DNA from: Kiritimatiellia bacterium
GTDB taxonomy: Bacteria; Verrucomicrobiota; Kiritimatiellia; B70-G9
NCBI GenBank assembly: GCA_029934055.1
Contig: JAOZMZ010000002.1
Span: 14,489 to 78,488, forward strand
DNA: 64,000 bases
Direction: 5' to 3'
The number at the start of each line of letters is the position of its first letter. The stretch's first letter is position 1. The notes under the pieces are model-generated. The model saw only the letters and a list, made by a program, of their open reading frames with translations, was not told where the DNA came from and did not search any database. Of the stretch, positions 27,301 to 62,430 are shown in pieces. A program made the translations under genes and the position numbers.

Positions 27301-29401
27301 CTACATCATCCACCCGAATCAGACCAGCGGCGGCGATAACTGGACGAACGGAGCCTACACCATCGAATTCTACGCAACCGACGGGGACGACGAACCGCTG
27401 CAGGCCGATATCTACTACGGGAACGGATGCGACGACGACTGGCACCTCATAAACACCAACCAAACCATCAACGTCGATACTTCGACACATTACGCCTCCT
27501 GGACCTGGGATCTCTCGGGAGTCGCCACGGGGGCTTATTACATCAAGGTCGTCGCCCGGCGCGGCGGCGGCGGAAAGCCGGGTTTCGACGTCTCCAACAG
27601 TCGCCTCATGGTGGAAGATACACTCGGATTCCCCCACAACGGACATACCAACGTAACCATCATCACCAACGACTGGGCACTGCTCGGCAACGATATGAGT
27701 TTCGAGTCCGGCAACAAATACGGCTGGGGCACCTCGCCGACCAACTGGAGTGAGGGCAACGACGACCTCGAAGTTCACATCACCTCGGACCGCTCCTGGG
27801 AAGGAGGTTACTCGGCCCGCATGCATGGCGGCGCCTGGACGGGATGGTCTTTCAACAACATCTATCAGCAGATCCCTTGTACCTCCGGAGAAGTCCTGTA
27901 TGTCACCGGCCGCGTCTATCTCGCCCAACTCGGCATCAACCCCGGAAGCACAAACTGGCTGAAGTGCGGAATCAAATTGGAGCCTACCAACGGCACCCCT
28001 TCAACCGCCGAAGACTGGCTCACCCCCGACGACGCCACCGCCTGCTGGCATACCCTGACCTTCTCATGCAACATAACCAACAGCGGCACCCGGAAACTCA
28101 TCCTCTACGTCATGGGATACGACGCTACCGGAGCCGACGTCTACTTCGACCGAATAGACGTTTTTTCCACAAATACCGGTACGATCGTTACCAATGAAAC
28201 ACGCACAAGCTATTGGCTCGGAGACCCCGACACCGACGTGTCCGATTACGATCTGCTGACTTTCTGGATAAGCGCCGCAAATCCGATCGACTACGCGGAA
28301 ATATGGGCCGCCGACTCCAGCGGCGTGACCAATACCGTGCCCCTTACCAATTTCCTCTCCCGCATCATATCACTGCAACGGCGCGTTGACGTTCCCTGGA
28401 CCAATTTCACCACCATCGACCGCACCCACTTGCATTCAATCGGCTTCAACAACTCAACCTCCAACAGCCTCTCGGTCGCCGATATGCGCTCACGCTCGAC
28501 ACCGATGCGGATATCCTCAAGCGTTCCGGCAACGGTCCGCCATGATCAGGACGGCCTGCCCCTCTTCAATCCCGGCGACGTCCTCACCAATATCATCAGC
28601 ATTCAAAACCTGAGCGGCAACACGCTTACCGGCCTGCGCATCCAGGTTGACCAGGAATACGCCGAAACCACCCTCTGGTGGGACTCCTCTCCGGGAGTAA
28701 GCCCCGTATGGAGCTGTCGCACCCGCAAAGGCGACCGCCTCTGTGGAGAATATGAACAGATTTGGACGAATATGAGCATCCCCGCCGGCTCGACGCTTGT
28801 CATCACGAACCTCTTCACGCTGCCATACGGCCAGCGAGTCGACCACACCCGCTATAAAACACAACCCGGTGAATACGACTGGTTCTTCGATCGTAACTAT
28901 GCCGGCCATGCCCGTAGCCATCTCGTGATCCGCCGCTCCAACGGTGACAACTTCTTCGCGGACGACCAGATTGTCTATTATTCCATGGATGACGATTTCG
29001 ATGTGGATAACGATGGATTGCCGGACTCATATGAATTGGAGCATTCCGGTTCATATACGGGCATGCAGGCGTCCGCCGACGACGACGGCGACGGTCGCAA
29101 CAATCTCCGGGAATTCGTAGCCGGCACCTGCCCCACCAATGCGGCCTCATTCCTCGACCTCGACCATATCGAATGCGAACCGGCCGCCGCCGTGGAACTG
29201 CAATTCGACACCGTCACCGGTCGGGTTTACTGGGCCGAGTGGTGCTCCAACCTGCTCGAACATGCCTGGTCGCCCGTGTCCACCAATCTGCTCGATGGTG
29301 ACGGTGGACTGAAAACCATTATCGACTACGAGAGCCTCTACGTCACCAGCCGCTATTACCGGATAGGCGTAAAACTGGGACAGGATTCCTGGCCACGCTG
29401 A
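24365..29401 (+). CDS. Large secreted protein (about 1680 aa) with three CBM4/9-like beta-sandwich modules, TSP3 Ca-binding repeats and the shared C-terminal FN3-like tail
   Basis: A signal peptide (LRALAIIAAAVAVT) is present. The motif N(A/G)xFE(T/S)Gx(L/K)xGW, typical of CBM_4_9, opens three modules near residues 55, 180 and 1130. A TSP3-like DDDFDVDNDGLPDSYE...DDDGDGRNNLREF is present. The C-terminus reads ...GRVYWAEW...SRYYRIGVKL. I chose the internal ATG at 24365 over 24326. Confidence 0.8.
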   Translation: MTRLSFTLISQGGILNKSILRALAIIAAAVAVTRQIPAETLSNAGFETGDLSGWSTITNQLSIATDTNNTFNQNYAARLQGSFCASSPITNTLSQSINVAAGDQLHLLGFVHWATNSYSSSAGTGTVCASLSDTFGAVTSATWNAAFDGWRFFDLHHELFGIHDRGFESGGLSAWDTGCDDLTASVQAAVADVGDYALEMAGTFDGWSWNQVYQLLTLTNGDVIHARARINVEELNTTGSWVVAGIKLEKDGGGYGVEDVIQANTNSTGWQDLSFVSAPITNSGLYIFRCMICGYGAATCTVYFDDILVWREEDSTDGLATATVSLSFEGFSGGASETGTVDLYWDSIALDGSSANPLPATNIYTTLRAEAESIATNPAADIPAINYPPLYVYVFPIGDWGVTDYPSYVEVGFASWTNGSDLICTNVIILYRPDNDSTERVLEFDSYGYLGAMAHTERGEGILLDTNSPPYFMLGSKDGSSAEFGTGPFAETHTYVIGTPLTNFPRKMTTAYGDGWPSRLEIVFTENAGACTSSLWTKHFILASIVTNSDTHPAKGVKICLYATTSGTSNDISYTSQEILMGGATEPQMYGRVDYPNVTYQDHNAVSLRAPWLYNLLDDGTGWWMQQRPRGSATIEPMTLYVCRDCNWVERPYEEYLFTWFNAASGVRSVFEDDYADRIPGQASYHVGFKIGHMYGTNEDGTARYPEVINIRGNGYFRMADYDGVMAGSFRPLAADIFGLYQFSEDAPLIPKAYSRMVPRTTPTNGTDDSYAQVFLSARSKTNNWFTSAMEMELHLSPDEVVSNGCFFDLELDTYANRAVTVTNDGALAAFDQVSMHWRGGSTNMGINDHTEGHDIDVVILKRSDGEWITHQVLNPPTNLYHRVLGTFASNDVVYLMQQDRAPYSYGFSTEQPYRKACSFEITLLDDAGRDLTLDVYEQNTASEISDNVNIAANFSDDLSSGEHLHYKYRYRSIYAPGVYIIHPNQTSGGDNWTNGAYTIEFYATDGDDEPLQADIYYGNGCDDDWHLINTNQTINVDTSTHYASWTWDLSGVATGAYYIKVVARRGGGGKPGFDVSNSRLMVEDTLGFPHNGHTNVTIITNDWALLGNDMSFESGNKYGWGTSPTNWSEGNDDLEVHITSDRSWEGGYSARMHGGAWTGWSFNNIYQQIPCTSGEVLYVTGRVYLAQLGINPGSTNWLKCGIKLEPTNGTPSTAEDWLTPDDATACWHTLTFSCNITNSGTRKLILYVMGYDATGADVYFDRIDVFSTNTGTIVTNETRTSYWLGDPDTDVSDYDLLTFWISAANPIDYAEIWAADSSGVTNTVPLTNFLSRIISLQRRVDVPWTNFTTIDRTHLHSIGFNNSTSNSLSVADMRSRSTPMRISSSVPATVRHDQDGLPLFNPGDVLTNIISIQNLSGNTLTGLRIQVDQEYAETTLWWDSSPGVSPVWSCRTRKGDRLCGEYEQIWTNMSIPAGSTLVITNLFTLPYGQRVDHTRYKTQPGEYDWFFDRNYAGHARSHLVIRRSNGDNFFADDQIVYYSMDDDFDVDNDGLPDSYELEHSGSYTGMQASADDDGDGRNNLREFVAGTCPTNAASFLDLDHIECEPAAAVELQFDTVTGRVYWAEWCSNLLEHAWSPVSTNLLDGDGGLKTIIDYESLYVTSRYYRIGVKLGQDSWPR

Positions 29402-45486: not shown

Positions 45487-48204
45487 GTGAGTCGGATCGT
45501 CACAGGACTACTGCTTCTCGCAATTCTGGCTCTCTCCGCCTCCGCCGGCGGCGGACCCGAAAACGTCCTCATCGTCGTCAACGACAACAGCAGCCGTTCG
45601 CTCGAAATCGGCCAGTACTATCAGGATGCCCGCGGAATCCCCGAACGGAATATATGTCACCTGAACACCACCACGAACTATTCGATCGACACCGCCGCCT
45701 TCACCAACCAGATCCGCCGGCCGATCTTCGATTACATCGCCCAGGCCGGTCTCAGCGGGCAGGTGGACTACATAGTCTTCTCCGTCGACTTTCCTTACCG
45801 GGTGTATCTCACCGGCTCGAGCTACAACACCAACAGCCTCACCGGGGCGATGTTCTACGATTACAAGAACTCGCCCCCGCCATGCTCACTGCCCCCTGCG
45901 GCGCTGAGCAGCTATTATGAAGCCGAAGAGGCTTTCTCCCATACCGGAACCACCGGCAACGGCTCCCTCTATATCAGCTCCATGCTCACCGCCTGGGACC
46001 TGGACCAGGCCCGCCGGCTCGTGGATCGCGCCGCCTCTGCAGACGCTGCCTGCCCCACGGGAACCACCTACTACCTGCGCCCCCCGGACAACGACCGCAA
46101 CGTCCGCTGGCACCAGTTCGAAGGCGCAATGTATCCGGTGCGTTTCCTCGCCGTCCCGCGCAGCAGTCAATACCTGGCCGCCTGGTACATCCAGGGGAAG
46201 AACGACGTCATCGGTTACATGCTCGGACGCACCCAAACCGAGCACCTCGACGACAATGTCTTCCTTCCGGGCGCACTCGCGGATCTGCTCACATCCTACA
46301 GCGGGTATCTCTTCGACAACCCCTGGGGGGCCCCTTCCTCCTGCCTGGAATGGATCCGCGTCGGCTGCGCCGGCACCTACGGCACGGTCGTCGAACCCTG
46401 CAACTACACCAACAAGTTTCCCCAGGCCCGCCTCCATTACTGGTACGCGCGCGGCTTCAGCATGGGCGAAGCTTTCACCATGTCGGTCCAGGCTCCATAC
46501 CAGGGCATCCTTGTCGGCGACCCCCTCTGCCAGCCGTATTCGCGCGGCCCGCTGGTGACGGTGGACGGACTGACGGACGGCCAAACGGTAACCGGCAGCG
46601 TGTCGGTCACAGTCACCAGCTTGTGCGCAACCGCCCAAGGTTCCATCAGCCGGATAGACCTCTTCCTGGACGGCCTGCGCATCGCCGTGCTCACGAATGT
46701 CGCCGTGACCCCCCTCAACGTCGTCACGGCCACTATCAACGGGCAGGACTGTACCTACCTCGTCCAGTCCGGCGACCGCCTCCCCGACGTGGCTTCCGGC
46801 CTGGCTTCCGCCATCAATAACAACGCCACCGGCGTGACCGCCCGCTCCTCCGGAGACCGCGTCGAAATCGTCCAGGACGCCCTGGGCGTCTCCGGAACCG
46901 GCATGACCTACAGCGCGACCACCTCCACCAACAGTTTCCTCGGCGGGGATTTGACGACCTTCGCCTGGACACCCGGCACGAACTTCGCCGAGACCACCTT
47001 TTTCGCCCGCCAGCGTATCGTCATCCACGGGGCGGTGGAATCCGGCGACATTGTCCGCGCCGTCATAACGCGCCTCGACGGCGCCGTCTTCACCAACGAA
47101 GCCGTCGCCGACGCCGACGACTCCAGCCGTGACCTGATGGAAAAACTCCACGTTGCCATCAATAACGACACCAACCTCCAAGGCACCGGGGGAGCATGGA
47201 TGCGCTACGTCGGCACCAACAAGGCCAGCAGCGACGTCGAGGCATACATCGAGGCGCGCACAAACACGTGGGACTCCTACAACATCTATCTCGATTACCA
47301 GGTCATCGGCCCGGACGGATCAAACTACAGCGGCCGACTGACCAGCAACGCCGACGTCATGGGCGCCCGCGCGGAAATTATGCTCACCGAGGGACGCACC
47401 CAGCTCGTCGCCGGTTACGTGCTCGATACCACGACTTATCCGGACGGGCCGCATACGCTGGCGGCGGTCGCCTATGACGGCTCGGCGGTGCGCGCCCAGG
47501 GACGGCGGGATATCTCCTTCAGCATAAGCAACAGCTCCCTCTCCTGCTGGATCGAAGAACCAACCCGCGGAAAACTCTTCGACTGGGGCGCAATGGTCAC
47601 GGTCTCGGTCAATGCCGCCGGCGGCACGGTCACCGGCATCACGCTCTTCGTGGAAGGCAAGCAATACGCCCTCACCAATACCCTCCCGGCCGTTTTCATC
47701 TGGGACACCTCGCAGTTCGGCCCCGGGCTGGTGGGGATCCAGGCGCGCGCCTGGCCCCCCTCCGGACCCGGCGCCCTCAGCGATGAAAAGCTCGTCCGCG
47801 TTCAAATTGACCGGGACGCGGACGACCTGCCCGACTGGTGGGAGTATGCCTGGTTCGGCGCGGCCACCACCACCACCGGATCCGCCGACGATGACGGCGA
47901 CGGCGCATCGAACCGCGCTGAATTCCTCGCCGATACACAGCCCACGAACACATCCCACTTCTTCGGCATCACCAATATCCTCCGCCGGGGTACCGGGGAC
48001 TCCACACGCATAACCTTCATCAGCAGCACCCAGCGGCTCTACAACATCTTCCTCAAGGACGCCCAGTTGTGCTCCACCCAGAACTGGTACGCCGCCGAAA
48101 CGAATTCCTTCTGGGGGGAGGAAGCGGATACGACCTGGTCGGATGACAGTGCTGACCCGACCGGCGGCCTGCGCTTCTACCGCGTCCGAGCCGAACTGCC
48201 GTAA
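45487..48204 (+). CDS. Secreted protein (about 905 aa) with Ig/FN3-like modules, a TSP3 repeat and the shared C-terminal FN3-like tail
   Basis: GTG start at 45487 gives the signal peptide VSRIVTGLLLLAILALSASA. The N-terminal block ENVLIVVNDNSSRSLEIGQYYQDARGIP resembles an uncharacterised family I have seen in PVC genomes. TSP3: DDDGDGASNRAEF. C-terminus: ...GGLRFYRVRAELP. Confidence 0.7.
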   Translation: MSRIVTGLLLLAILALSASAGGGPENVLIVVNDNSSRSLEIGQYYQDARGIPERNICHLNTTTNYSIDTAAFTNQIRRPIFDYIAQAGLSGQVDYIVFSVDFPYRVYLTGSSYNTNSLTGAMFYDYKNSPPPCSLPPAALSSYYEAEEAFSHTGTTGNGSLYISSMLTAWDLDQARRLVDRAASADAACPTGTTYYLRPPDNDRNVRWHQFEGAMYPVRFLAVPRSSQYLAAWYIQGKNDVIGYMLGRTQTEHLDDNVFLPGALADLLTSYSGYLFDNPWGAPSSCLEWIRVGCAGTYGTVVEPCNYTNKFPQARLHYWYARGFSMGEAFTMSVQAPYQGILVGDPLCQPYSRGPLVTVDGLTDGQTVTGSVSVTVTSLCATAQGSISRIDLFLDGLRIAVLTNVAVTPLNVVTATINGQDCTYLVQSGDRLPDVASGLASAINNNATGVTARSSGDRVEIVQDALGVSGTGMTYSATTSTNSFLGGDLTTFAWTPGTNFAETTFFARQRIVIHGAVESGDIVRAVITRLDGAVFTNEAVADADDSSRDLMEKLHVAINNDTNLQGTGGAWMRYVGTNKASSDVEAYIEARTNTWDSYNIYLDYQVIGPDGSNYSGRLTSNADVMGARAEIMLTEGRTQLVAGYVLDTTTYPDGPHTLAAVAYDGSAVRAQGRRDISFSISNSSLSCWIEEPTRGKLFDWGAMVTVSVNAAGGTVTGITLFVEGKQYALTNTLPAVFIWDTSQFGPGLVGIQARAWPPSGPGALSDEKLVRVQIDRDADDLPDWWEYAWFGAATTTTGSADDDGDGASNRAEFLADTQPTNTSHFFGITNILRRGTGDSTRITFISSTQRLYNIFLKDAQLCSTQNWYAAETNSFWGEEADTTWSDDSADPTGGLRFYRVRAELP

Positions 48205-50571: not shown

Positions 50572-51705
50572 CTATTCCTCCCCCGCCAGGCACCGGCGGA
50601 TGCTTCGATCCAACCCCTCCAGGAAACTCCGCAGGCTGAATCTCAGTACGCTCGCCCGAATCTTTTCCCCGTCCCAACTGCGCCGCGCACATTCCTCCAC
50701 CGCCGATATCAGCGCATCCTCGCGCTGCTCATCGAAAAAAACCCCGCCGACGCCTTCCTCGACGGATTCGAGCACACCACCGGCCGCATACGCCACCACC
50801 GGCCGCCCGCACGCCTGCGCCTCAACCGGTACCAGCCCGAAATCCTCTTCCCCCGGAAAAACCAGACAGCGACACCCGCGGTACAACTCCCGCACGGCTT
50901 CGTCGGGCTGTCTCCCAAGAAAGGTGATGTTCTCCGCCGCCATTCTCCTGAGACGTTCGTATTCCGTCCCCGTGCCGACGATCACCAGCGGATACCCCGT
51001 CCGGCTGTAGGCCCGCACCGCCAGGTCAATGCGCTTGTACGGTACCAGCGCGGACACGATCAAATCATATTCGCCGCCCGTACCCGGCCCCGGAGTGAAC
51101 CACTCCAAATCCACCGGCGGATAGACCACGTCGGCCGGGCGCTGATAGCAGGACTCGATCCTGCGCTGCACGTTGCGGCTGATGGCGACGAAGCGGTCCA
51201 CCCGGCGCGACGAGCGCCGGTCCCACTCGCGCAGGCGCCCCAGCAACGGACTCAGCAGGCCCTGCTTGAGGCGGCTCTTTCCGAAATACTCCTCGTAGAA
51301 CACCCATACGTAACGCATCGGCGTAAAGCAGTAACATAGATGCCGCATTCCCGGCGGCGGCCTGATTCCCTTCGCCACGCAATGACTGGTGCTGATGAGT
51401 ATGTCCGCCTCCGGCGGCCGGAACCGCTCGACCAGATACGGCATCACCGGCAGAAACATCCGGTAGTGACGCCGCGCGCCCGGTACCTGTTGCAACAGGG
51501 ATGTGTGAACCGGGTGCCGATTGATCGTCCCGCTGACGGCGCCGGGATCGTGCAGCATGGTGAATATGGGCGCCCGTGGAAACGCCCGGCAAAGAATCTC
51601 CAGCACGCGCTCGCCCCCGCGCATCCCCGTCAGCCAGTCGTGGGAAAGCACCACCTCCAGCGACTCCCACGTGCGTGGATACAGATTCTCCTCTCCCGGA
51701 CTCAT
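50572..51705 (-). CDS. Glycosyltransferase family 4
   Basis: The C-terminal GT4 EX7E region is EDFGLVPVEAQACGRPVVAYAAGG. Confidence 0.8.
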   Translation of the reverse strand: MSPGEENLYPRTWESLEVVLSHDWLTGMRGGERVLEILCRAFPRAPIFTMLHDPGAVSGTINRHPVHTSLLQQVPGARRHYRMFLPVMPYLVERFRPPEADILISTSHCVAKGIRPPPGMRHLCYCFTPMRYVWVFYEEYFGKSRLKQGLLSPLLGRLREWDRRSSRRVDRFVAISRNVQRRIESCYQRPADVVYPPVDLEWFTPGPGTGGEYDLIVSALVPYKRIDLAVRAYSRTGYPLVIVGTGTEYERLRRMAAENITFLGRQPDEAVRELYRGCRCLVFPGEEDFGLVPVEAQACGRPVVAYAAGGVLESVEEGVGGVFFDEQREDALISAVEECARRSWDGEKIRASVLRFSLRSFLEGLDRSIRRCLAGEE

Positions 51706-52862
51706 GTCTCCTCCTCCCCGCGGGCGGCGCGGTAGACTTTCTCCGTCTCGCGGGCGGCGCGTTCCCAGGAAAATTGCGCCGCGCGCCGCAGACCCTTGCG
51801 CCGCAAATCCTCCGCCAGCCCCCTGTCAGTCAGCACCGCCGTGATGCCCGCAGCCAGGGCCTCCACGTCGTCCAGCTCCACGAACAAGGCGGCATCTCCG
51901 GCCACCTCGGGAAGCGAGCCCGCCCGCGTACACACAACCGGCGTGCCGCACGCCATGGCCTCCAGTACGGTCAGCCCGAAGCCCTCCGCCCGCGACGGCA
52001 ACACGTATACCGCAGCCGTCCGATAGGCTTCAACCAGCTCGTCGGTATCCAGATACCCGTCCCAACTGACGAACGCCCCCAGCCGCAATGCCTGCACCCG
52101 TTCCTCGGCCTCCGGATAACGCGCGTCGGCAGGACCCACTACCCGCAGGCGCACCCCGTCCACCTTCTGCCGGACCAATGCAAACGCCTCGACCAGCAAC
52201 GCCAGGTTCTTGTAAGGATCACGCCGGCCGACGTACAGAATCACCGCCTCCGGCCCGTCCCATCCCTCCCCGGTTCCGCCCGGGCTGAAACGGGGATCCA
52301 CCCCCTCCGGCACAACCCACACACTGCCCGCCCGCTCCGGCCCGATCTTCAGCTCCCTGAGCACGTCGGCCCGCGTCGCCCCGCTGGGACAAATTATGGC
52401 ATCCGCCCGCCGCCCCACCTCCCGCATGATCCAGCGGTAAAGCCAAAAAAAACGCCGCTTGCGCGCCCGCGGCGCATGATCCGGATATACCAGGGGAATC
52501 ACGTCATGCAGCGTCACCACGCAGGCCGTCCGCCCCCTGCGACCGGCCGGAAACGCCGCCAGTGGTATCATGTAGTTCGGCGCATGATAGACTTCCACCC
52601 CCTCGCGCCGCAACAACGCCGGCAGACTTACCTGGGCCCGCATGTCAAACGGCCCGTAGTCCACCAGCAAGGACTTCGCCCTTGCGGCCGCCGGCGGCCC
52701 GATGGCGTTCAGCGTCCGCCGCCGGACTTCGGGATCATCGAAGAGCAACAAATACTCGTTCTCCGCCCCCCCGCGAATCAGCGCCGCCGCCAGTTCGGCG
52801 GTGTACTGCCCGACTCCGCTCAACTCCCGGAATATCCAGCGACAATCCAGTAAGACCCTCAT
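51702..52862 (-). CDS. Glycosyltransferase family 4
   Basis: EGFGLTVLEAMACGTPVVCTRAGSLPEV is present. The start is taken at [10 protein letters not shown]. The ORF-track extension to 53015 is Gly-rich and improbable. Confidence 0.8.
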   Translation of the reverse strand: MRVLLDCRWIFRELSGVGQYTAELAAALIRGGAENEYLLLFDDPEVRRRTLNAIGPPAAARAKSLLVDYGPFDMRAQVSLPALLRREGVEVYHAPNYMIPLAAFPAGRRGRTACVVTLHDVIPLVYPDHAPRARKRRFFWLYRWIMREVGRRADAIICPSGATRADVLRELKIGPERAGSVWVVPEGVDPRFSPGGTGEGWDGPEAVILYVGRRDPYKNLALLVEAFALVRQKVDGVRLRVVGPADARYPEAEERVQALRLGAFVSWDGYLDTDELVEAYRTAAVYVLPSRAEGFGLTVLEAMACGTPVVCTRAGSLPEVAGDAALFVELDDVEALAAGITAVLTDRGLAEDLRRKGLRRAAQFSWERAARETEKVYRAARGEEET

Positions 52863-53989
52863 TCGCGCCTTTCCCTCAACACCGCCCGGTAAACCTCCAT
52901 CGTCCGCCGCGCCGTCTCCTCCCAGCGGTACCCCGCCGCCCGTCGCAGACCCCGCTCCTTCAGTCCCTCCCGATACGCGGAATCGCTCAACACCCGCCGC
53001 AGGTGAAGCGCCCATTCATCCGCATCGAACCCTTTCACCAGATCGGCACCGTCCCCCAATACCTCCGGCAGGGACCCGGTTGCCGCCGCCACCACCGGAG
53101 CCCCGCAGGCCATCGCCTCCAGCGGCGGCAGGCCGAACCCTTCATACAGCGACGGAAAGACGAACACGTCCGCGGCCGCATACAGGGCCCGCAGATCAGC
53201 ATCCGCCAATCCTTCCAGGTGCCTGATGGCGACCGCCCGCGGCGAACTGCGCATCCTCTCGAAAATCGGCCCGAATTTCCAGCCGCGCCTGCCCACCACG
53301 ACCAACTCGCCCCCATACTCCTCCAGACGCTCAAACACCTCGATCAGGAAAACGATGTTCTTGCGCGGCTCGATGGTCCCAACGGTCAATATGTACGGCC
53401 GCTCCAACCCCCGGCGCCGCCGCACCGCCGCCGTCTCGTCCGCGGACGGCGCCCGCATCGCCGGGTCCACTCCCAGATGAATCGGGTGCAGCTTCTCCCG
53501 CGCCACCCCCAGCAGATCATGAATCTCATCCGCCGAAAAACGCGAATCGGTTATGATCGCGTCCGCCCGCGCCGCCGTCGCCCCGATCCGCGCCCGCAGG
53601 TAGCGCAGATTGCCCCTCTCCGTGGTTTCCGGAAAACGCAGGAAAGAAACGTCGTGGATCGTCGCCACCGCCGCCGAATTTCCCAGCGGCGGCAGAATGA
53701 AATTCGGGAAATGATAGACGTCCGCCGCCCCCGCCAGCCGTTCGAACGCCGGCGGCAGCCCGTGTTTCCACAACCCCTGCACGACCCGCCCCGGTATCCA
53801 GCGAACCACCCGCTCGACCGTGCGCGCCGCCCGCAAGGCGCGCCCCCGCCGCCTGAAATCAAAATAGAACGCCACCAGCTCGTCCCCCCCGCCGAGGAAC
53901 AACGGCAGATACTCCACCAGCGAACGCGTGTAACGCCCGACACCCGCCCCTTGACTCACCGCAGCCTGGACATCAATACATATTCTCAT
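52859..53989 (-). CDS. Glycosyltransferase family 4
   Basis: [28 protein letters not shown] is present. The start is taken at MRICIDVQA. Confidence 0.8.
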
Positions 53990-54162
53990 CCCTGCCAGCT
54001 CCCGGCACCGACGCCGCCCACTCTCATCCCCTGCATTATGCACCATTCCGTCCCCCAGTCCACCCATCCACGCCCCCCCACAAGGGAGGATTCGACTTTC
54101 AACTCCTAGTCCGGCGCCCTAAAATAAGAACGCATACTAACCAGAACGGAGACTCTAGCAAC

Positions 54163-57003
<2,841 letters not shown>

Positions 57004-57095
57004 AATCGTTATTTTTTTCACTTTTCCCGCTTGACTCCCCGCCGATTTGGTAATATTTTCGTCACAAAAATCATACCGGTCACCGTACCAAAAAT

Positions 57096-57101
57096 AAGGA
57101 G
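57096..57101 (+). promoter_or_regulatory. Shine-Dalgarno sequence (AAGGAG) for the DUF4198 gene
   Basis: AAGGAG lies 8 nt upstream of ATG 57110. A weak sigma70-like TTGACT (57031) ... TAATAT (57051) pair with a short spacer lies further upstream; I consider it uncertain. Confidence 0.4.
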
Positions 57102-57109
57102 TACAAATC

Positions 57110-57883
57110 ATGACGTCGACATCCAGGCCCGCCGTTGCCGCCGCCGCCCTCCTGCTCCTCACCCTCACCGCCCAGGCCCACTTCCAGGTCATCCTCCCCG
57201 CAACCGATATCATCCCCGTCGAAGGACCCCTCCAAACCTCACTGCGATTGATCTTCACCCATCCCATGGAACAGGGACCGGTCATGAATATGAAATCACC
57301 CCGCGAATTCGGCGTCTTCTACAACGGCGCCAAACATGACCTGCTCAAAACCCTCACCCCCCAACCCCTCCACGGAAAAATGACCTATACCACCACCTTC
57401 AAGTTCCCCGCACCCGCCGACTACATCTTTTACCTCGCCCCCGCCCCCTACTGGGAACCCGCCGAAAACAAGATGATCATCCACTACACCAAGGTCATCG
57501 TGGACGTCGGCGACGCCCAGGAAGGCTGGGACGCCCTCGTCGGCCTCCCCGTGGAAATCGAACCGCTCGTCCGCCCCTACGGCCTCTGGACCGGAAATGT
57601 CTTCCGCGGAATCGTCCGTCATGACGGCAAACCGGTGCCCTTCGCCGAAATCGAAGTCGAGTACTGGAACGCCGCAAACAAAGTCCATCCCCCTGCACAA
57701 CCCTTCGTCACCCAGGTCATCAAGGCCGACTCCACCGGCGTCTTCTCCTACGCAATCCCCCGCGCCGGCTGGTGGGGATTCGCCGCCCTGATCGAAGGAC
57801 CCTCGATGAAAAACCCCGCCGGACGCAACGTCCCCTCGGAACTCGGCGGCCTGATCTGGATCCGTGCCGTGGACATGCACTGA
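57110..57883 (+). CDS. DUF4198-family periplasmic protein (NikK-like candidate Ni/Co-binding component)
   Basis: Signal peptide AAAALLLLTLTAQA is followed immediately by HFQVILP. The N-terminal His after cleavage is typical of this metal-uptake-associated family. Length is about 257 aa. It lies upstream of cbiMNQO. Confidence 0.65.
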   Translation: MTSTSRPAVAAAALLLLTLTAQAHFQVILPATDIIPVEGPLQTSLRLIFTHPMEQGPVMNMKSPREFGVFYNGAKHDLLKTLTPQPLHGKMTYTTTFKFPAPADYIFYLAPAPYWEPAENKMIIHYTKVIVDVGDAQEGWDALVGLPVEIEPLVRPYGLWTGNVFRGIVRHDGKPVPFAEIEVEYWNAANKVHPPAQPFVTQVIKADSTGVFSYAIPRAGWWGFAALIEGPSMKNPAGRNVPSELGGLIWIRAVDMH

Positions 57884-57928
57884 CCAAAATGAAACACCCC
57901 ACGAAAAAAACAACCGCCCCATCCCCTT

Positions 57929-58258
57929 TTTCCAATCATTGGAACTTTTCCACCCAAAACTTCCAAACATTGGAAGTTTCCACCTCAAAAACTTCCAAAC
58001 ATTGGAAAAATCGCCGCCAAAACTTCCAATCATTGGAAACTTTCCATCAAAAACTTCCAATCATTGGAAACCTCCCCCCTGAAAACTTCCAATCATTGGA
58101 AAAACCGCCGGCAAAACTTCCAATCATTGGAAACTTCCACCCTAAAAACTTCCAAACATTGGAAAAATCGGCGCCAAAACTTCCAATCATTGGAAAAACT
58201 TATAGAAAAACTTCCAAACATTGGAAACTTTGTGTGCACAAACTTCCAATCATTGGAA
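57929..58258. repeat. Tandem array of 11 phased copies of a 15-bp 7-1-7 inverted repeat, TTCCAA[T/A]CATTGGAA; most copies are preceded by AAAAC
   Basis: Copies begin at 57929, 57961, 57993, 58024, 58055, 58087, 58118, 58150, 58181, 58212 and 58244. Centre-to-centre spacing is 31-32 bp throughout. Spacers are 10-13 bp and are themselves semi-repetitive (ACTTTCCACC-like and AAATCGCCGCC-like). The region is locally AT-rich within a GC-rich genome. Confidence 0.9.
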
Positions 58259-58282
58259 GAATTTTGCAAATGAATCTCTCCT

Positions 58283-58410
58283 CTCCAACCAACAACCCAG
58301 CAACCCAACAACCCAACAACTCAGCAACCCAACAACCCAACAACTCAGCAACCCAACAACCCAACAACCCAACAACCAAACAACCCACAACCCGACAACC
58401 CTCAACCACT
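58283..58410. repeat. Simple-sequence repeat built on CAACCCAA / CAACAACT units (including two exact 24-bp copies, CAACCCAACAACCCAACAACTCAG)
   Basis: Direct reading gives ...caaccaacaacccag caacccaacaacccaacaactcag caacccaacaacccaacaactcag caacccaacaacccaacaacccaacaaccaaacaacccacaacccgacaaccc... Confidence 0.8.
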
Positions 58411-58552
58411 AACTCCCCGACCTCCGCCTTCCGTCTTCTGTCTTCCCCCCCATCAACCATCAACCAATACCCATTAACCATTGACCTCCCCGGCCGACGT
58501 AGCCTTGGCGTAGTCGGCCGACCTCCGCACCCCTCACCGGGAGACCGCTCTG

Positions 58553-59152
58553 ATGCATATCTCTGAAGGCATCCTCTCAGCTCCCGTCCTGGCCGGTGGA
58601 GGTCTCCTCACGGCCGTCGGAACCGCCCTGGGACTGCGCCGCCTCACCCCGGAACGCCTGCCCCGCGTCGCCGTCATGGGCGCCGCCTTCTTCGTGGCTT
58701 CCCTCGTCCATGTCCCCATCGGTCCCAGCAGCGCCCACCTCATCCTCAACGGCCTCTGCGGCCTGATTCTCGGCTGGAGTGCCTTTCCGGCACTGCTGGT
58801 ATCCCTCTTCCTGCAGGCACTGCTCTTCGGCTTCGGCGGCTTGACCACCCTCGGCGTCAACACCTTCGACATGGCCGCCCCGGCGGTCGCCTGCGCGTGG
58901 CTCTTCGGCAAGGCCTGCAACAATCCCGCGCGGCCGCGCCTGGTCTTCGCCGCCGGCGCCGCCGCCGGCGCCCTGGCGGTCGCCCTCGGATGCCTTGCGA
59001 CCGCCACGGCCCTTTTCCTTTCCGGCCGCGAATTCATCCCCGCCATCATCGCCCTGGCCGCAGCCCACATCCCCATCATGATCGCCGAAGGCCTCATAAC
59101 CGGCTGGGCCGCATGGTTCCTCGCCAAAATCAAACCGGAGTTGTTACGATGA
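58553..59152 (+). CDS. cbiM: ECF-type Ni/Co transporter substrate-capture component CbiM/NikM
   Basis: N-terminus MHISEGILS (the Met1-His2 metal-binding start of CbiM/NikM), multiple TM helices, and the SSAHLILNG motif. Confidence 0.85.
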   Translation: MHISEGILSAPVLAGGGLLTAVGTALGLRRLTPERLPRVAVMGAAFFVASLVHVPIGPSSAHLILNGLCGLILGWSAFPALLVSLFLQALLFGFGGLTTLGVNTFDMAAPAVACAWLFGKACNNPARPRLVFAAGAAAGALAVALGCLATATALFLSGREFIPAIIALAAAHIPIMIAEGLITGWAAWFLAKIKPELLR

Positions 59153-59715
59153 AAACGACAGCCACAACAACCCGCGCCCTTTTCCTGATCGCAGCCGTCC
59201 TCCTGGCCGCCCCCTCGGCCCGCGCCCACAAGTTGCTGCTCTTCGCCACGCACTCCGGCACGACCGTCACCGGCCGGGCATACTTCCCCGGCGGCATCCG
59301 TGCGCAGGGCATCCCGGTCACGCTCTCCGACTCTTCCGGACATGTTCTCGCCACCGCCTCCACCGATACCAACGGCGCTTTCCGCCTCCCCGCCCCCCGG
59401 CTCCCCGCCTGCACCCTCACCGCGGAGACCGTGGACGGCCACCGCGCCGTCTTTCATCTCGCCCTTGCGGCCGCCACGCCCGGCGACGCTGCCCCGCCTG
59501 CCGACTCACCAGCCCCGCACGCCTCGTCCCCGCCTCCCGCACCCGACAGCGAACTCGCCGCCCAAATCCAGGCCCTGCGCGATCACCTCTACCTGCACGA
59601 CATCCTCGGCGGCGTCGGCTACATTCTCGGCATCTGGGGAACGATCTGCTTCCTGCTCGCCCGCCGCCGTCAACCACCGCGCCCTGAAACCGGAAAAAAG
59701 GATCTCCGCCCATGA
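59149..59715 (+). CDS. Small two-TM accessory component of the Ni/Co ECF transporter (CbiN/NikN- or NikL-like) with an inserted periplasmic beta-sandwich
   Basis: ATGA overlap with the cbiM stop. N-terminal TM/signal sequence ALFLIAAVLLAAP. A periplasmic segment with a carboxypeptidase-regulatory-like pattern (TVTGRAYFPGG...SDSSGHVLATASTDTNGAFRL). C-terminal TM GGVGYILGIWGTICFLLARRRQ. Confidence 0.5.
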   Translation: MKTTATTTRALFLIAAVLLAAPSARAHKLLLFATHSGTTVTGRAYFPGGIRAQGIPVTLSDSSGHVLATASTDTNGAFRLPAPRLPACTLTAETVDGHRAVFHLALAAATPGDAAPPADSPAPHASSPPPAPDSELAAQIQALRDHLYLHDILGGVGYILGIWGTICFLLARRRQPPRPETGKKDLRP

Positions 59716-60464
59716 CCTGTCTCGCCGCCATAGGTTCCAACAGCGCCGTTTCCCGCATCGATCCGCGGGTGCGCTTCCTCACCGCCCTCTGGCTGGCCGC
59801 ATGTACCGCCGTCGTCCGCAATCCCCCGGCGGTCGGCTTCGCCCTCGCCGCCGGCCTGGCACTCGTCGCCGCCGCCCGAATTCCACCGCACCGCGTCATC
59901 CGCCGCCTCGTCCCCCTTAACATCTTCATGTTGCTGGTCCTCCTCACCCTCCCCTGGACCGTGCCCGGCCGCCCCCTCCTCAACATCGGCCCGGCGGTCC
60001 TCACCGCCGAGGGCCTGCAAAGGGCGCTGCTTTTGGCAGCCCGCGGCAACGCCCTCATGCTCATGATGATCGCGCTGCTCGGAACCATGGAAGTCACCGA
60101 TATCGCCCACGCCCTCTCGCGCCTGCACCTGCCCGCGCGCCTCGTGGGACTCTTCATCATTACCATCCGTTACATCGAAGTCCTTCACCACCACGAATTC
60201 GACCGCCTCGCGCGCGCCATGAAAAGCCGCTCGTTCCGCCCCCGCGCCGACCTGCACACCTACCGCTCCTACGGCTACCTGCTGGGCATGTTCATGGTCC
60301 GTAGTTTCGAACGTGCCGAACGCATCCTGCGCGCCATGAAAAGCCGGGGCTTCGATGGTCGCCTCCCCGCCCTCGAGGCTCCACCCCTGCGGCCGGCCGA
60401 TATCGCTTTCGCCGTCTCGACCGCCTTCGCCGGCATAATCATGCTCGGAGGGGTCCTCCCATGA
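59712..60464 (+). CDS. cbiQ: ECF transporter transmembrane T component CbiQ/NikQ
   Basis: Polytopic membrane protein of about 250 aa with R-rich cytoplasmic loops (RAMKSRSFRPR...RAMKSRGFDGR). ATGA overlaps on both sides. Confidence 0.75.
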   Translation: MTCLAAIGSNSAVSRIDPRVRFLTALWLAACTAVVRNPPAVGFALAAGLALVAAARIPPHRVIRRLVPLNIFMLLVLLTLPWTVPGRPLLNIGPAVLTAEGLQRALLLAARGNALMLMMIALLGTMEVTDIAHALSRLHLPARLVGLFIITIRYIEVLHHHEFDRLARAMKSRSFRPRADLHTYRSYGYLLGMFMVRSFERAERILRAMKSRGFDGRLPALEAPPLRPADIAFAVSTAFAGIIMLGGVLP

Positions 60465-61219
60465 GCAACGTCCTCTTCGAACTCCGCCGGATCGATTTCG
60501 CCTACGACGACACCCGTCCGGTCCTCCGCGGACTCGACTTCACCCTGCGCCGCGGCGAACGCGTCGCCCTCACCGGCCCCAACGGATGCGGCAAGAGCAC
60601 CCTCCTGCATATCATGACCGGACTCCTCAAGCCGTCCTCCGGCACCCTGGTGGCCTTCGGCCGCACCCGGCGCGAAGAAAAAGACTTCCACGAAGTGCGC
60701 CGCCGTACCGGGCTGCTCTTCCAGGACGTTGATGATCAGCTCTTCTGCCCGACCGTCATCGAAGACGTCGCCTTCGGCCCTCTCAATCTCGGCCTCGACC
60801 GTCACGCCGCCGTCCGGCGCGCCCGCGCCGTCCTCGGAACCCTCGGCCTCGATGACTTTGAAGACCGCATCACCTTCCGCCTCTCCGAAGGCGAAAAACG
60901 CCTGGTCGCCCTGGCCGGCGTCCTGGCCATGGAACCGGAAGTCATCCTCCTCGACGAACCCATGGCCGGGCTCGACGAAACCGCCGCCCGCCGCGTGGAG
61001 GAAATCATCCTCACCCTCCCCCAAACCCTGGTCATAATCGCCCACGATACGGACTTCCTCGCACGGCTTACCAGGCGCACTCTGCGCCTCCATGCCGGCC
61101 GCCTCCGGGAAGCACCGCCGGACCCTTTTCCTTCGCACGCCTCCCCCGCCGACGCGCCGGGAGGCGTACAGTCCATACGCACATCACAAGAAAGGAGCAA
61201 ACCATGCACAAAACCATGA
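60461..61219 (+). CDS. cbiO: ECF transporter ATPase component CbiO/NikO
   Basis: Walker A GPNGCGKSTLLHIM, ABC signature LSEGEKRLVALAG, Walker B ILLDEP. Confidence 0.85.
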   Translation: MSNVLFELRRIDFAYDDTRPVLRGLDFTLRRGERVALTGPNGCGKSTLLHIMTGLLKPSSGTLVAFGRTRREEKDFHEVRRRTGLLFQDVDDQLFCPTVIEDVAFGPLNLGLDRHAAVRRARAVLGTLGLDDFEDRITFRLSEGEKRLVALAGVLAMEPEVILLDEPMAGLDETAARRVEEIILTLPQTLVIIAHDTDFLARLTRRTLRLHAGRLREAPPDPFPSHASPADAPGGVQSIRTSQERSKPCTKP

Positions 61220-62430
61220 CCATCATCGCCCTCTTCTGCCTCGTTCCCGCGCTCATCACGACCGCGCAGACCAACCCGGTTTCCCGCGCGGAGTTCAAAT
61301 CCCTGGAGAACCGCCTGCATTCGTTGGAGAAACAACTCGCCGCCGAGCGCAACCCGCTCCCCGGCGCCCAGGGGCCGCTCCTCCTGGCAAAGGATATTTC
61401 CGCCTCCCTCGGGGCCACTTTCGTCCTCCAGGGAAGCTCCGGGACGACCAGCGACGTCACCGACGCCTCGGCTTCCTACGAGCTGGAGTTTCTCGCCTCC
61501 CCCATCCCCGCCGCTTCGATATATGCCCACATCGAAGCCGGCAACGGCGCCGGAATTGACGAGGATATCTCCTCGTTTTCAGGATTCAACGGCGACGCCG
61601 ACGACAGCAGCGTCGCCTTCACCGAGTTCTGGTATGCCCAGTCCTGGTTCGACGGACGCCTGGTCGTGGAAGCCGGCAAGATCTGTCTCGGCGGCCCCGG
61701 CGACAACGGCCCGGAAGAAGCCATCGCCTTCGACGCCAACCAATACGCCAACGACGAGCGCAGCCAGTTCCTTTCCCCCGCCTTCATCAACAACCTCGCC
61801 CTGGACCTTCCCGACAACGGACCGGCATTCCTCTTCCGCATCTCACCCGCCGAGCTGCTCGACCTCAATTTCGGCATCGCCGATGCCGACGCCGACATGA
61901 ACAACGTCTTCGACAACCTCTTCGCCATTGCCCAGGCCGACCTCAACCCCCATCCGCACGGCCGCGCCGGCACCTACCGCATCTACGCATGGTTCAACGG
62001 CGCCGATCACGAAAAATTCTCCGACCCCGAAAGCAAAACGGACAACTACGGTTTCGGCCTCTCCCTGGATCAGCCCCTCTCCCCCTCCCTCGGCATCTTT
62101 CTGCGCTACGGCCGTCAGCGCGCCGGCGTCGCCGCCGTCGAGCACGCCATCAGCACCGGATTCGAGCTTGCCGGCAACCCGTGGAACCGGCCCGACGATG
62201 CCTTCGGGCTCGCCGGCGGGATTCTCCTCATGAGCGACGACTGGGAAGACGCCCAGCGCGCCGCGGGCCTCGATCCCGCCCGCGAACAGCACATCGAGAC
62301 CTATTACAAGCTCCGTATCAACGACAACCTCAGTATCTCTCCGGACCTCCAGTGGATACATAACCCCGACGGCGACGCCGCCGCAGATGACGTCTGGAGC
62401 TTCGGTCTGCGCGCCCAGATGACGATTTGA
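61204..62430 (+). CDS. OprB-family (carbohydrate-selective-type) outer-membrane porin
   Basis: Signal peptide IIALFCLVPALITTAQT, then a coiled-coil N-segment, then a beta-barrel with the family C-terminus ...WSFGLRAQMTI (terminal aromatic). Confidence 0.65.
   Translation: MHKTMTIIALFCLVPALITTAQTNPVSRAEFKSLENRLHSLEKQLAAERNPLPGAQGPLLLAKDISASLGATFVLQGSSGTTSDVTDASASYELEFLASPIPAASIYAHIEAGNGAGIDEDISSFSGFNGDADDSSVAFTEFWYAQSWFDGRLVVEAGKICLGGPGDNGPEEAIAFDANQYANDERSQFLSPAFINNLALDLPDNGPAFLFRISPAELLDLNFGIADADADMNNVFDNLFAIAQADLNPHPHGRAGTYRIYAWFNGADHEKFSDPESKTDNYGFGLSLDQPLSPSLGIFLRYGRQRAGVAAVEHAISTGFELAGNPWNRPDDAFGLAGGILLMSDDWEDAQRAAGLDPAREQHIETYYKLRINDNLSISPDLQWIHNPDGDAAADDVWSFGLRAQMTI

Follow-up and report, generated by a model that had tools for sequence, protein, structure and literature searches.

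The array of eleven palindromes that separates a DUF4198 gene from cbiM in the window (the whole 64,000-nucleotide stretch of Kiritimatiellia DNA analyzed here) is the largest example we found of a dispersed cis-element, TTCCAA-N3-TTGGAA, which is conserved across Kiritimatiellia-type bacteria of the PVC group and tied to no pathway. A literature search on regulatory and repeat elements of Kiritimatiellia and on the motif itself returned no description of it, and the element appears to be undescribed. Reading the array as a nickel/cobalt switch is not supported, being largely refuted by the distribution of the element. We favor, tentatively, an explanation that could well be right, in which the palindromes are phased sites for a conserved dimeric, oligomerizing DNA-binding protein with a geometry like that of Lrp, the array in the window being an expanded instance.

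The array and its junction

A pattern search with TTCCAAWCATTGGAA returned 11 exact matches of the form TTCCAA-WCA-TTGGAA at 57930-58258, starting at 57930, 57961, 57993, 58024, 58055, 58087, 58118, 58150, 58181, 58212 and 58244. Dinucleotide-preserving shuffles are expected to give about 0.1 matches, and none of 100 shuffles reached the observed count. Start-to-start spacing alternates between 31 and 32 bp with a mean of 31.4 bp ((58244-57930)/10), which corresponds to three turns at 10.5 bp, so the eleven palindromes at 31-32 bp described in an earlier note on this DNA are confirmed. The 7-1-7 geometry given there holds for the seven copies with a TCA centre, which are perfect 7-1-7 palindromes, and fails for the four with an ACA centre, which are 6-3-6 only. 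Each unit can be written as AAAAC-TTCCAA-WCA-TTGGAA-A plus about 10 variable nucleotides. Copies 1 (57930..57944), 4 (58024..58038), 5 (58055..58069), 6 (58087..58101), 7 (58118..58132), 9 (58181..58195) and 11 (58244..58258) read TTCCAATCATTGGAA, while copies 2 (57961..57975), 3 (57993..58007), 8 (58150..58164) and 10 (58212..58226) read TTCCAAACATTGGAA. Copy 1 is preceded by CCTTT instead of AAAAC, and copy 11 is followed by GAATTTTGCAAAT. Tandem Repeats Finder and a separate repeat search both give higher-order periods of 63 and 94 bp; the first agrees with the roughly 64-bp unit previously proposed, and the second adds a three-unit block. The motif occurs nowhere else in the 64-kb window: a search for the palindrome that allowed any centre and tolerated as many as two mismatches gave just two extra matches, a chance-level number.

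The array begins 46 nt past the stop codon of the DUF4198 protein gene (57110..57883, + strand; PF10670, E = 1.6e-56) and ends 294 nt short of the ATG of cbiM (58553..59152, + strand; PF01891, E = 1.5e-55), the first gene of a cbiM-(N)-Q-O set. Pfam searches place a CbiQ gene at 59712-60464 and an ABC ATPase gene at 60461-61219, followed by a gene for an OprB-family porin at 61204-62430. The intergenic gap measures 669 bp, in line with the 670 bp first noted, and its AT-richness was likewise borne out (GC 0.38-0.41, against 0.62-0.73 in the flanks). A microsatellite, (CCAACAAC) x 14 at 58289..58401 on the + strand, was found by Tandem Repeats Finder, composition and repeat search and is part of the inserted gap sequence; together with shorter repeats at 58423-58446 and 58450-58486 it makes up the remainder of the gap, the + strand of which is almost free of G. 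The 669-bp gap has no detected sigma-70-like promoter and no predicted intrinsic terminator. No known RNA family or riboswitch reached the gathering threshold in the window, and the gap gave only noise at E <= 1. A sigma-54 promoter at the last copy (TTGGAAGAATTTTGCA) was also considered and rejected, its spacing, judged by eye, being one base short of TGGCAC-N5-TTGC.

Among 80 DUF4198 loci from metagenomes, 79 have no array at this junction, and the exception is the closest relative (L122), with five copies. An exact-protein look-up with CbiM yielded no further contig. In those relatives where cbiM follows the DUF4198 gene, the two are adjacent across a gap of 3-290 bp, mostly below 120 bp, that lacks the motif outside L122. 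The favored explanation takes the array in the window as an expanded instance of the element inserted into a normally tight operon junction; the DUF4198-cbiM operon is physically split in this lineage. Protein divergence between the window species and L122 is about 30%; the 12 half-site positions are nevertheless unchanged in 11 of 11 units in the window and in five of five in the orthologous array. The L122 gap has no microsatellite like the one at 58289..58401, and some L122 copies have their arms pushed apart by an inserted GC-rich hairpin, with the arms themselves kept. In a 99%-identical strain (L121) the copy number equals that of the window, while copy 3 has a TCA centre and copy 7 an ACA centre. 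No cbiM follows the repeats in L121, an arrangement that may be genuine or may reflect a chimeric assembly.

These comparisons bear on a deflationary explanation, namely that a pair of sites is functional in whatever role it has and that the eleven copies arose from it by neutral, VNTR-like expansion, whether through unequal recombination or replication slippage, and have no particular effect on cbiMNQO. The 63- and 94-bp periods and the few spacer types point to growth by block duplication, the rest of the gap also consists of simple repeats, the L122 array differs in copy number, and most arrays elsewhere have just two copies (see below). Against this stand the intact half-sites of both arrays at such protein divergence and the constant copy number in the near-identical strain, which suggest that every copy of the array is maintained, although recent homogenization could mimic such intactness. 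We regard a purely neutral expansion as improbable. In the favored explanation, the element was inserted at this locus and then grew by tandem duplication of two- and three-unit blocks.

Distribution and the nickel/cobalt question

A scan of species-representative genomes found at least 145 arrays of TTCCAA-N3-TTGGAA in at least about 47 Kiritimatiellia-type metagenome-assembled genomes (MAGs); it covered up to 120 stretches, selected for exact pairs and accepted start-to-start spacings of 23-41 bp. Arrays range from two to 11 sites, with two copies in 110 of the at least 145. They lie at co-directional, convergent and divergent junctions and in some cases inside coding regions, and the convergent 3'-3' junctions are real, as verified with Pfam. 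With gene calls from a crude GC3 heuristic, 28% of divergent, 16% of convergent and 15% of co-directional junctions are occupied. The motif is concentrated at gene junctions, with 5' and 3' ends enriched equally. Where a terminator is visible, the array is located within a transcribed 3' UTR. Abundance is uneven between genomes, reaching about 18% of gene junctions in bin-1020 while being rare elsewhere, and paired sites also occur on a few viral contigs, in one of which (L210) the array is followed by a separate, classic terminator. The possibility that the element is itself an intrinsic terminator was rejected on this ground and on the lack of a predicted one in the cbiM gap.

Centres follow genome-wide ‘dialects’, with TSA in some genomes and GSC, GGG or ACC in others. 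Orthologous sites are kept across species while the centre follows the dialect of each genome (the window and L122, L055 and L092, L042 and L095), a pattern that co-evolution of the sites with a trans-acting factor would predict. The genes whose 5' ends adjoin arrays show no functional enrichment: 109 such genes fall into 123 Pfam families, none with more than two members and with no enrichment for metal-related functions. No regulator or transposase recurs among the array-adjacent genes, although a single-copy RAYT, the IS200/IS605-type tyrosine transposase that accompanies REPs and is flanked by the repeat, would easily be missed.

This distribution largely refutes the reading of the array as a Ni/Co-responsive operator for cbiMNQO, bound by a Fur-family protein such as Nur or by NikR, which we now consider extremely unlikely. 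The reading draws on the position of the array upstream of a Ni/Co ECF transporter, on the seven 7-1-7 copies with an AAT-N-ATT core of the kind found in Fur-family boxes, and on a single array in another MAG (L061) that abuts a Fur-family, PerR-like gene on its upstream side. The motif search recommended in the earlier note, run here on relatives of the source genome, instead returned loci unrelated to gene starts, including verified convergent junctions, and neighboring genes with no metal theme; in these relatives the outcome is the one that the note had named as refuting an operator. The four ACA copies of the window and the GSC, GGG and ACC genomes lack the AAT-N-ATT core, which is present in the seven TCA copies and in TSA-centre genomes. 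At the locus itself, nearly all DUF4198 junctions lack the motif, and the array lies far closer to the upstream stop codon than to the cbiM start, in a gap devoid of a sigma-70-like promoter. Fur, moreover, polymerizes on overlapping hexamers, not in 31-bp steps.

The L061 case was followed into four orthologous loci (L214-L217) as a lead for Fur-family autoregulation and rejected. No TTCCAA/TTGGAA site with up to two mismatches was found in any of the four; the orthologues of the PerR-like gene carry TAGTAAT-N-ATTACTA boxes instead, the canonical Fur-family (Fur, PerR, Zur, Nur) boxes of this lineage. The likeness to that family is confined to sites with a T-S-A centre, which are 7-1-7 with the AAT-N-ATT core; other dialects break the core, and the element marks no metal or oxidative-stress regulon. 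A promoter element was likewise considered on an initial apparent tie to gene starts and rejected: neither -35 and -10 elements nor a Shine-Dalgarno sequence show up in the oriented profile of the arrays, enrichment is the same at 5' and 3' ends, and the convergent junctions are real. The general distribution also argues against an enhancer role of the arrays. Of the cooperative operator array originally proposed, the part that we retain is the proposed cooperative binding of dimers on one helical face; the Fur-family or Ni/Co operator of cbiMNQO is the part that found no support.

Helical phasing and the nature of the site

Across the at least 145 arrays, start-to-start distances are 31 bp in 107 cases, 32 bp in 82 and 30 or 33 bp in eight. 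A second class of 10-12 cases at 21-22 bp lies outside the range for which the scan selected, and two viral cases have a spacing of 41 bp. No spacing of 23-29 or 34-40 bp was found, though the scan accepted 23-41 bp. The spacers between copies are unrelated from locus to locus, so the spacing itself is constrained, not simply inherited. In-phase neighbors are bimodal, being either intact or at background level, and most in-phase copies are exact. Throughout the group all 12 bases of the half-sites stay the same, with half-site centres about 9 bp apart and A/T-tract flanks, and the oriented position matrix is symmetric. At the dyad, 267 of 269 copies have C or G, with 139 C and 128 G on the sense strand (39 versus 36 when counted by array); a C or G at the dyad with no strand preference is a constraint at the level of the base pair. 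One-sided transitions in the arms show no strand bias either, with G·U falling on the sense strand in 10 cases and on the antisense in nine. Helical-turn spacing, invariant half-sites, a G:C dyad without strand bias and the lack of a G·U bias together point to duplex DNA as the form that is read.

The main rival to a duplex-binding protein is a REP- or REPIN-like element, in which the palindromes act as single-stranded DNA or RNA hairpins, the doublet is the replicative unit, and a dedicated transposase, perhaps a domesticated one, spreads or maintains the copies. Any host roles would then be those of REPs, namely stabilizing mRNA 3' or 5' ends, providing attenuation within operons, or recruiting gyrase or IHF. 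The copies are dispersed, short, extragenic palindromes, usually in doublets of fixed spacing with less conserved spacers, as in REPINs (PMC3116915); REP-type arrays sometimes reach about a dozen copies and vary in abundance between genomes, as the arrays here strongly do (PMC3116915, PMC3733652), and some copies are intragenic, as reported for REPs (PMC3733652). In addition, arrays lie within apparent operon junctions and 3' UTRs, and the array strand in the window folds much better than shuffled sequences (z = -9.6). Three of five double-mismatch copies are compensated in the opposite arm, and in L122 the arms are split at the loop position by an inserted hairpin and retained; both observations favor selection on a hairpin and weaken the favored explanation.

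The specific hallmarks of these elements, however, are missing. In REPs, one end of the palindrome is marked by a tetranucleotide, GTAG or CGTC (PMC3733652), whereas the tag is absent here, and no combination of tag and side occurs in more than seven of 179 pairs. REPINs are extragenic doublets in inverted orientation that form one long hairpin together with their spacer (PMC3116915); here adjacent units have identical orientation in 126 cases and flipped in 74, compared with 93% inverted REPIN doublets, and the self-complementarity of the spacers equals the permutation null at every depth, with none beyond composition. In bin-1020, the densest genome, mean pairwise spacer identity is 0.489 versus 0.458 in core-shuffled controls, and what similarity remains reflects an extension of the palindrome in each unit. 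Since these spacers are barely more alike than the controls and the spacers show no extra self-complementarity, the copies are not recent copies of a master sequence, and a MITE or copy-and-paste origin was rejected because the spacers are unrelated. The two spacing classes lie one helical turn apart, and no transposase recurs beside arrays. REPs prefer co-directional and convergent junctions and have G·T pairs in their stems, as suits a transcribed element, whereas the arrays here occupy divergent junctions no less often than convergent ones. REP families are typically confined to one species or genus, while the stem sequence here is conserved across the whole class, which likewise separates it from the REPs, BIMEs and REPINs of proteobacteria. 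The earlier note, which listed REP-like RNA hairpins among its hypotheses, correctly anticipated a dispersed distribution; selection on RNA hairpins was nonetheless rejected, with neither the sense-strand G·U bias nor the loop-base bias present and C and G used equally in the loop. We consider a REP-like element unlikely overall, albeit a serious competitor.

Tandem, phased repeats that look like protein sites also recall the centromere-like partition sites of the parC/sopC type and iterons, and copies that are almost exact, show species dialects and have unrelated flanks, with pairs on a few viral contigs too, recall DUS/USS-like uptake or self-marking signals under molecular drive. Partition sites and iterons are unique and lie beside partition or replication genes, whereas this element occupies many chromosomal loci per genome in the relatives, with unrelated neighbors and no recurring ParA/ParB-type genes; the centromere suggestion made earlier was thus not upheld, the element being dispersed instead of forming a single locus. 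An uptake signal would leave the obligatory pairing at two or three helical turns unexplained, and such signals are common inside genes while this element is concentrated at junctions. Either role appears very unlikely.

A candidate reader and what it would mean

The known systems of this geometry are oligomers of the Lrp/AsnC family, the feast/famine regulatory proteins. Lrp-type dimers bind 13-17-bp inverted repeats that are always clustered on one helical face, two or three helical turns apart from centre to centre, and assemble into octamers or cylinders that wrap at least 100 bp of DNA (PMC2995911). The element resembles these sites both in its 15-bp 6-3-6 palindrome and in its spacing, which is 31-32 bp in about 190 cases and 21-22 bp in the minor class. 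It differs in that natural Lrp sites are degenerate, have an A/T-rich centre and lie mostly at promoters, whereas the sites here are near-exact, have a G:C dyad and are found at every type of junction and in some coding DNA. As reportedly described by Rodionov and Gelfand in 2005, NrdR boxes offer a second precedent, with two 16-bp palindromes whose centres are separated by three turns, about 31-32 bp, and to which an oligomerizing repressor binds; they are of the ACACWATATATWGTGT type and confined to the promoters of ribonucleotide reductase (nrd) genes, while the element here is dispersed genome-wide.

By analogy, each 15-bp palindrome TTCCAA-N-S-N-TTGGAA would bind one dimer of a putative sequence-specific duplex-DNA-binding protein, and neighboring dimers, separated by two or three helical turns, would touch one another, so that two or more sites might nucleate a nucleoprotein complex, either wrapped or filament-like. 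The occupation of junctions in every orientation, and now and then of coding DNA, fits a pathway regulator less well than a global or nucleoid-associated factor. In the window, protein on all eleven sites would cover about 330 bp, and the occupied array would presumably act as a roadblock, an insulator or a protein-controlled entry point, separating the expression of cbiMNQO from that of the upstream gene. Several observations weaken this explanation: the sites match their consensus much more closely than do the degenerate sites usual for transcription factors or Lrp; the G:C centre is unlike the A/T-rich centre of Lrp-type sites; the great variation in abundance between genomes is typical of selfish repeats; and arrays with a visible terminator are located in a transcribed 3' UTR. 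A tblastn search with Escherichia coli Lrp against the window and L001-L201, which represent a small fraction of each genome, found no Lrp homologue.

A broader version of the favored explanation, possible but doubtful, is that of an unrecognized chromatin-like system shared by the class. Phased TTCCAA-NSN-TTGGAA sites at gene boundaries (about one-fifth of junctions in some genomes) would serve as nucleation points for an abundant sequence-specific protein, its wrapped oligomers would punctuate or insulate transcription units, protein and sites would co-evolve into dialects of centre and flanks, and the 11-site array would be a high-occupancy example that splits an operon.

For annotation, the array in the window should not be taken as a metal-responsive operator. 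If the REP-like rival were true, the element would found a new REP-like superfamily outside the GTAG/CGTC classes. Members of this poorly studied phylum are important degraders of sulfated polysaccharides, and if the favored explanation holds, a short exact sequence would mark the high-affinity sites of a conserved DNA-organizing or global regulatory protein in them. That protein could then be fished out directly by DNA-affinity capture, and the element, with half-sites fixed while centre and flanks drift from genome to genome, would be a clean natural case in which to follow the co-evolution of sites and their reader.

Array anatomy and setting at the cbiM junction

Positions 57930-58258 hold 11 exact copies of TTCCAAWCATTGGAA, where about 0.1 are expected by chance and no shuffle in our pattern search reached this count. 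The three-base centre between half-sites is TCA in seven copies, giving a perfect 7-1-7 palindrome, and ACA in the other four. Start-to-start distances alternate between 31 and 32 bp (mean 31.4 bp, three turns of B-DNA). Because the spacers are drawn from a few recurring types, the array also has longer periods of 63 and 94 bp, found with Tandem Repeats Finder and a repeat search. The array occupies part of a 669-bp gap between a DUF4198 gene (57110-57883) and cbiM (58553-59152), the latter followed by cbiQ, an ABC ATPase gene and an OprB-type porin gene; 46 nt separate the DUF4198 stop codon from the array's first copy, and 294 nt lie between its last copy and the start of cbiM. The GC fraction here drops to ~0.40 against a background of 62-73%. 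The earlier note had described eleven phased palindromes 31-32 bp apart upstream of cbiM, AT-rich DNA in GC-rich surroundings and patterned spacers with a unit of about 64 bp; all three are borne out, the last as the 63-bp period, joined by that of 94 bp. No sigma-70-like promoter or terminator was detected in the gap, and the TTCCAA/TTGGAA motif is unique to the array within the 64-kb window (centre free, up to two mismatches).

The remainder of the gap contains an octanucleotide microsatellite, (CCAACAAC) x 14, at 58289-58401, shorter C/A-rich repeats at 58423-58446 and 58450-58486, and a perfect 8-bp inverted repeat at 58491-58520, 33 nt upstream of the cbiM ATG (CGGCCGAC...GTCGGCCG, 14-nt loop, no T-run). 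Similar GC-rich hairpins, some with a 'gtagccttggcg'-like sequence, adjoin arrays at comparison loci L003, L004, L032, L052 and L122. Across the microsatellite and the shorter repeats the plus strand is nearly free of G (GC skew down to -0.76), and the tract could serve as a Rho-loading (rut-like) site or an unstructured leader. It looks hypervariable, since a 99%-identical strain, L121 (JGI metagenome contig 3300005098, Ga0072683_111470), has far fewer units and leaves the window sequence inside the tract. L121 matches window positions 51112-58313 at 99% and carries the same eleven copies with a few point changes; divergence is total from 58313, and from its own position 7201 on, unrelated lower-GC DNA (zinc-ribbon membrane protein, methyltransferase, GH31) replaces cbiMNQO, leaving cbiM absent there. 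Either the strain is rearranged or its contig is an assembly chimera joined at the simple repeat; of the two versions, the window's is the credible one in view of its closest relative, L122, which also has cbiM after the array. Elsewhere in the window, an Asp-rich calcium-binding-type repeat (CCCGACAGCGACGGCGACGGCATG..., encoding DSDGDG) occurs in many copies (9954-16980, 29076-29113 and 47339-47921) within very large ORFs, recalling bacterial thrombospondin type-3 repeats.

We compared 80 metagenomic loci with DUF4198 homologues at 49-70% identity. Where cbiM follows DUF4198, 3-290 bp (in most cases under 120) separate the two genes and the motif is absent, with L122 (DUF4198 70% and CbiM 68% identical) as the sole exception: in its 549-bp gap, five exact copies spaced 31 bp apart are accompanied by degenerate ones. 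In an alignment of the 11 and 5 units, all twelve half-site positions are invariant; the centres (WCA versus GGY/AGA) and spacers differ. The tight, motif-free gaps elsewhere and this alignment therefore mark the array as inserted in this lineage into an operon junction that is normally tight, and as retained at the same place in two species. At other loci, orthologous arrays lie past the same gene's stop codon in two MAGs, each with its own centre (L055/L092), a pair holds the same position within a conserved coding region (L042/L095), and a pair in one MAG corresponds to a mere proto-site in another (L098/L020).

A dispersed motif family in PVC-group genomes

One genome per bacterial or archaeal species was scanned for two exact TTCCAA-N3-TTGGAA copies 8-26 nt apart (23-41 bp start to start). 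The scan found at least 145 arrays of two or more exact copies in at least about 47 MAGs, a requirement that under-samples absolute abundance, the share of degenerate sites and periods outside 23-41 bp. PVC-group MAGs account for all matches listed; by the names given in the records, 17 are Kiritimatiellae, Kiritimatiellia, Kiritimatiellales, Kiritimatiellaeota or Pontiella, and the others have older or less precise names (Lentisphaerae, Verrucomicrobia, Spartobacteria or 'uncultured bacterium'). The window shares DNA segments of 67-70% identity with three motif-bearing MAGs and therefore belongs to the same group. Among the matches listed, 110 arrays have two copies, 20 three, 11 four, one five and three six, making the window's the largest. 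Corrected for ascertainment, the motif occupies ~18% of junctions in the MAG bin-1020 and almost none elsewhere, which matches the single array in 64 kb here. Bin-1020 (CAIVKH01) shows a massive expansion, with 35 arrays in 139 kb, one pair at each of four consecutive gene junctions (L077, 141-6039) and a unit lengthened to about 29 bp. A few IMG/VR viral contigs also have these phased pairs (L207/L210, IMGVR_UViG_3300035698_006241; L204/L208; L202; L211; L213); they may be phages or prophages from this bacterial group that carry host-type sites. Full-text literature searches found no description of the motif or of dispersed repeats in Kiritimatiellia.

Conservation is confined to the palindrome and its immediate A/T-tract flanks, which are either tTTT-TTCCAA…TTGGAA-AAAa or, as in the window and L122, AAAA[C/G]-TTCCAA…TTGGAA-[C/G]TTTT. 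An oriented position matrix of 77 arrays was symmetric and gave no signal at constant distance corresponding to a -35 or -10 element or a Shine-Dalgarno sequence; spacers are unrelated between loci even inside one genome. The centre varies between genomes and is fairly uniform within each (TGA/TCA in bin-1020, GCC/GGC in bin-260, GGG in FR_21, ACC in AMR_MDS_0138), its middle base being C or G in 267 of 269 copies. Spacing is sharply quantised: among the arrays listed, 31 bp occurs 107 times, 32 bp 82 times and 30 or 33 bp eight times, with no other bacterial spacing in the accepted 23-41 bp range. A second class of 21-22 bp (10-12 cases) was seen only as bystanders of the scan, and two viral cases are spaced 41 bp. 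One period from an exact copy, 330 sites are exact (partly by ascertainment), 35 have one mismatch, 16 have two to four and the rest five to ten, so that in-phase neighbours are either intact or at background level; for non-ascertained neighbours the first three classes are estimated at roughly 45:35:16.

Gene context and comparison with known elements

Context was assessed with our own GC3-based gene caller, which is crude and was checked, with Pfam verification of selected cases. By these calls, arrays are concentrated at both kinds of gene boundary: a 5' limit lies within 150 nt of 57% of them and a 3' end within 150 nt of 50%, where random positions give about 20%. Across 46 ordinary MAGs, 28% of divergent, 16% of convergent and 15% of co-directional junctions are occupied, and Pfam confirmed real genes around five convergent arrays (among them isocitrate dehydrogenase/PATR, UxaE/FAD oxidoreductase, Fe-hydrogenase/Rex and SBF/GH57). 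It is common for an array to touch or overlap a start codon (L034, L005, L041, L033, L010, L007, L073 and L008 have gene-start arrays), and some lie inside N-terminal coding regions. The motif has no stop codon in any of six frames unless the centre adds one, and in some cases it is translated. Signal peptides (MIGK...) appear to start at the ATG in CCAATGATTGG, and several secreted proteins have one to five copies, in different frames, in a long N-terminal region or right after a TAT signal, as in the TAT-signal sulfatase of L008.

The earlier note's main proposal, a Ni/Co operator for cbiMNQO, is not supported by these data. The motif is dispersed in relatives at all junction types and beside unrelated genes: the 109 genes whose 5' ends adjoin arrays match 123 Pfam families, each at most twice, spanning SecA, tRNA synthetases, RuvB, sulfatases and fucosidases, with no metal-related enrichment. 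In TSA-centre genomes the site does have the AAT-N-ATT core of Fur-family 7-1-7 boxes, and at L061 a Fur-family gene encoding a PerR-like protein has an array 93 nt upstream. Four orthologous loci (L214-L217, PVC-type contigs) have no TTCCAA/TTGGAA sites; they carry canonical Fur-family (PerR-type) boxes, TAGTAAT-N-ATTACTA, at about 2440-2500 and 2940-3130, upstream of the PerR-like gene and neighbouring ahpC and ferritin genes, which looks like a tidy small regulon, and the link through L061 was rejected. Given this result, the absence of metal enrichment and the motif-free DUF4198-cbiM junctions outside L122, the Ni/Co-operator label is not upheld.

REPs are 20-40-bp palindromes that carry a GTAG or CGTC tag, have G·T pairs in their stems and occur preferentially at co-directional and convergent junctions (PMC3733652), and REPINs are inverted doublets of fixed spacing that form one hairpin with their spacer (PMC3116915). 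Here, in contrast, tags are absent from palindrome ends across arrays, divergent junctions are the most occupied, the G·T hallmark is not seen, adjacent units are mostly co-oriented (126 versus 74) and spacer self-complementarity equals the null. In the densest genome, spacers are barely more alike than shuffled controls, and the likeness that remains lies in the palindrome of each unit extending further outward (CGCAAAy-TTCCAATSATTGGAA-rTTTGCG). The element mixes traits of phased operator clusters and dispersed extragenic palindromes, outside the definitions of the families tested.

Duplex site or hairpin, and a proposed role

We tentatively favor recognition as duplex DNA by a symmetric protein, at slightly less than even confidence. 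Spacing classes one helical turn apart, half-sites kept across the whole class and A/T-tract flanks in both polarities point this way, as does the G:C pair required at the dyad on either strand (sense strand 139 C versus 128 G; by array 39 versus 36). One-sided arm transitions create a G·U pair 10 times in the sense and nine times in the antisense strand. The REP-like hairpin also raised in the earlier note lacks the REP/REPIN hallmarks and seems unlikely to us, with some observations in its favor. Of five copies with two mismatches, three have the change in one arm matched by a compensating change in the other (~3% each by chance), although quasi-palindrome self-correction during replication could also yield this. 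In L122, arms are intact but parted (1063-1102 and 1318-1366; CTTCCAAGG-[about 30-nt GC-rich hairpin]-GTTTGGAAC), the second split copy reading CTTCCAGGG-[about 22 nt]-CCTGGAAC with an A·T to G·C change compensated between its arms. A second small hairpin element seems to have inserted at the dyad. Four copies in viral L210 lie between a stop codon and a classic intrinsic terminator and are therefore transcribed there; one spacing in this contig reaches 41 bp because its spacer contains a GC hairpin. Compared with shuffles, the array strand folds far better, yet into a heterogeneous ensemble, as for any repeated palindromes.

Under duplex recognition, each palindrome would hold one dimer of a conserved putative DNA-binding protein, and dimers two or three turns apart would interact, with pairs and longer arrays nucleating a complex that is wrapped or filamentous. 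Among documented systems, Lrp/AsnC sites come closest in geometry: these 13-17-bp inverted repeats occur in clusters, two or three helical turns from one another, and an octamer or cylinder wraps the DNA (PMC2995911). The likeness is one of geometry and we claim no family membership; unlike Lrp sites, the arrays have a G:C dyad and near-exact copies. That the element is indifferent to what the adjoining genes do and how they are oriented suggests a nucleoid-associated or global role for the putative protein. In the former operon junction, eleven occupied sites over ~330 bp would plausibly block or gate transcription into cbiMNQO.
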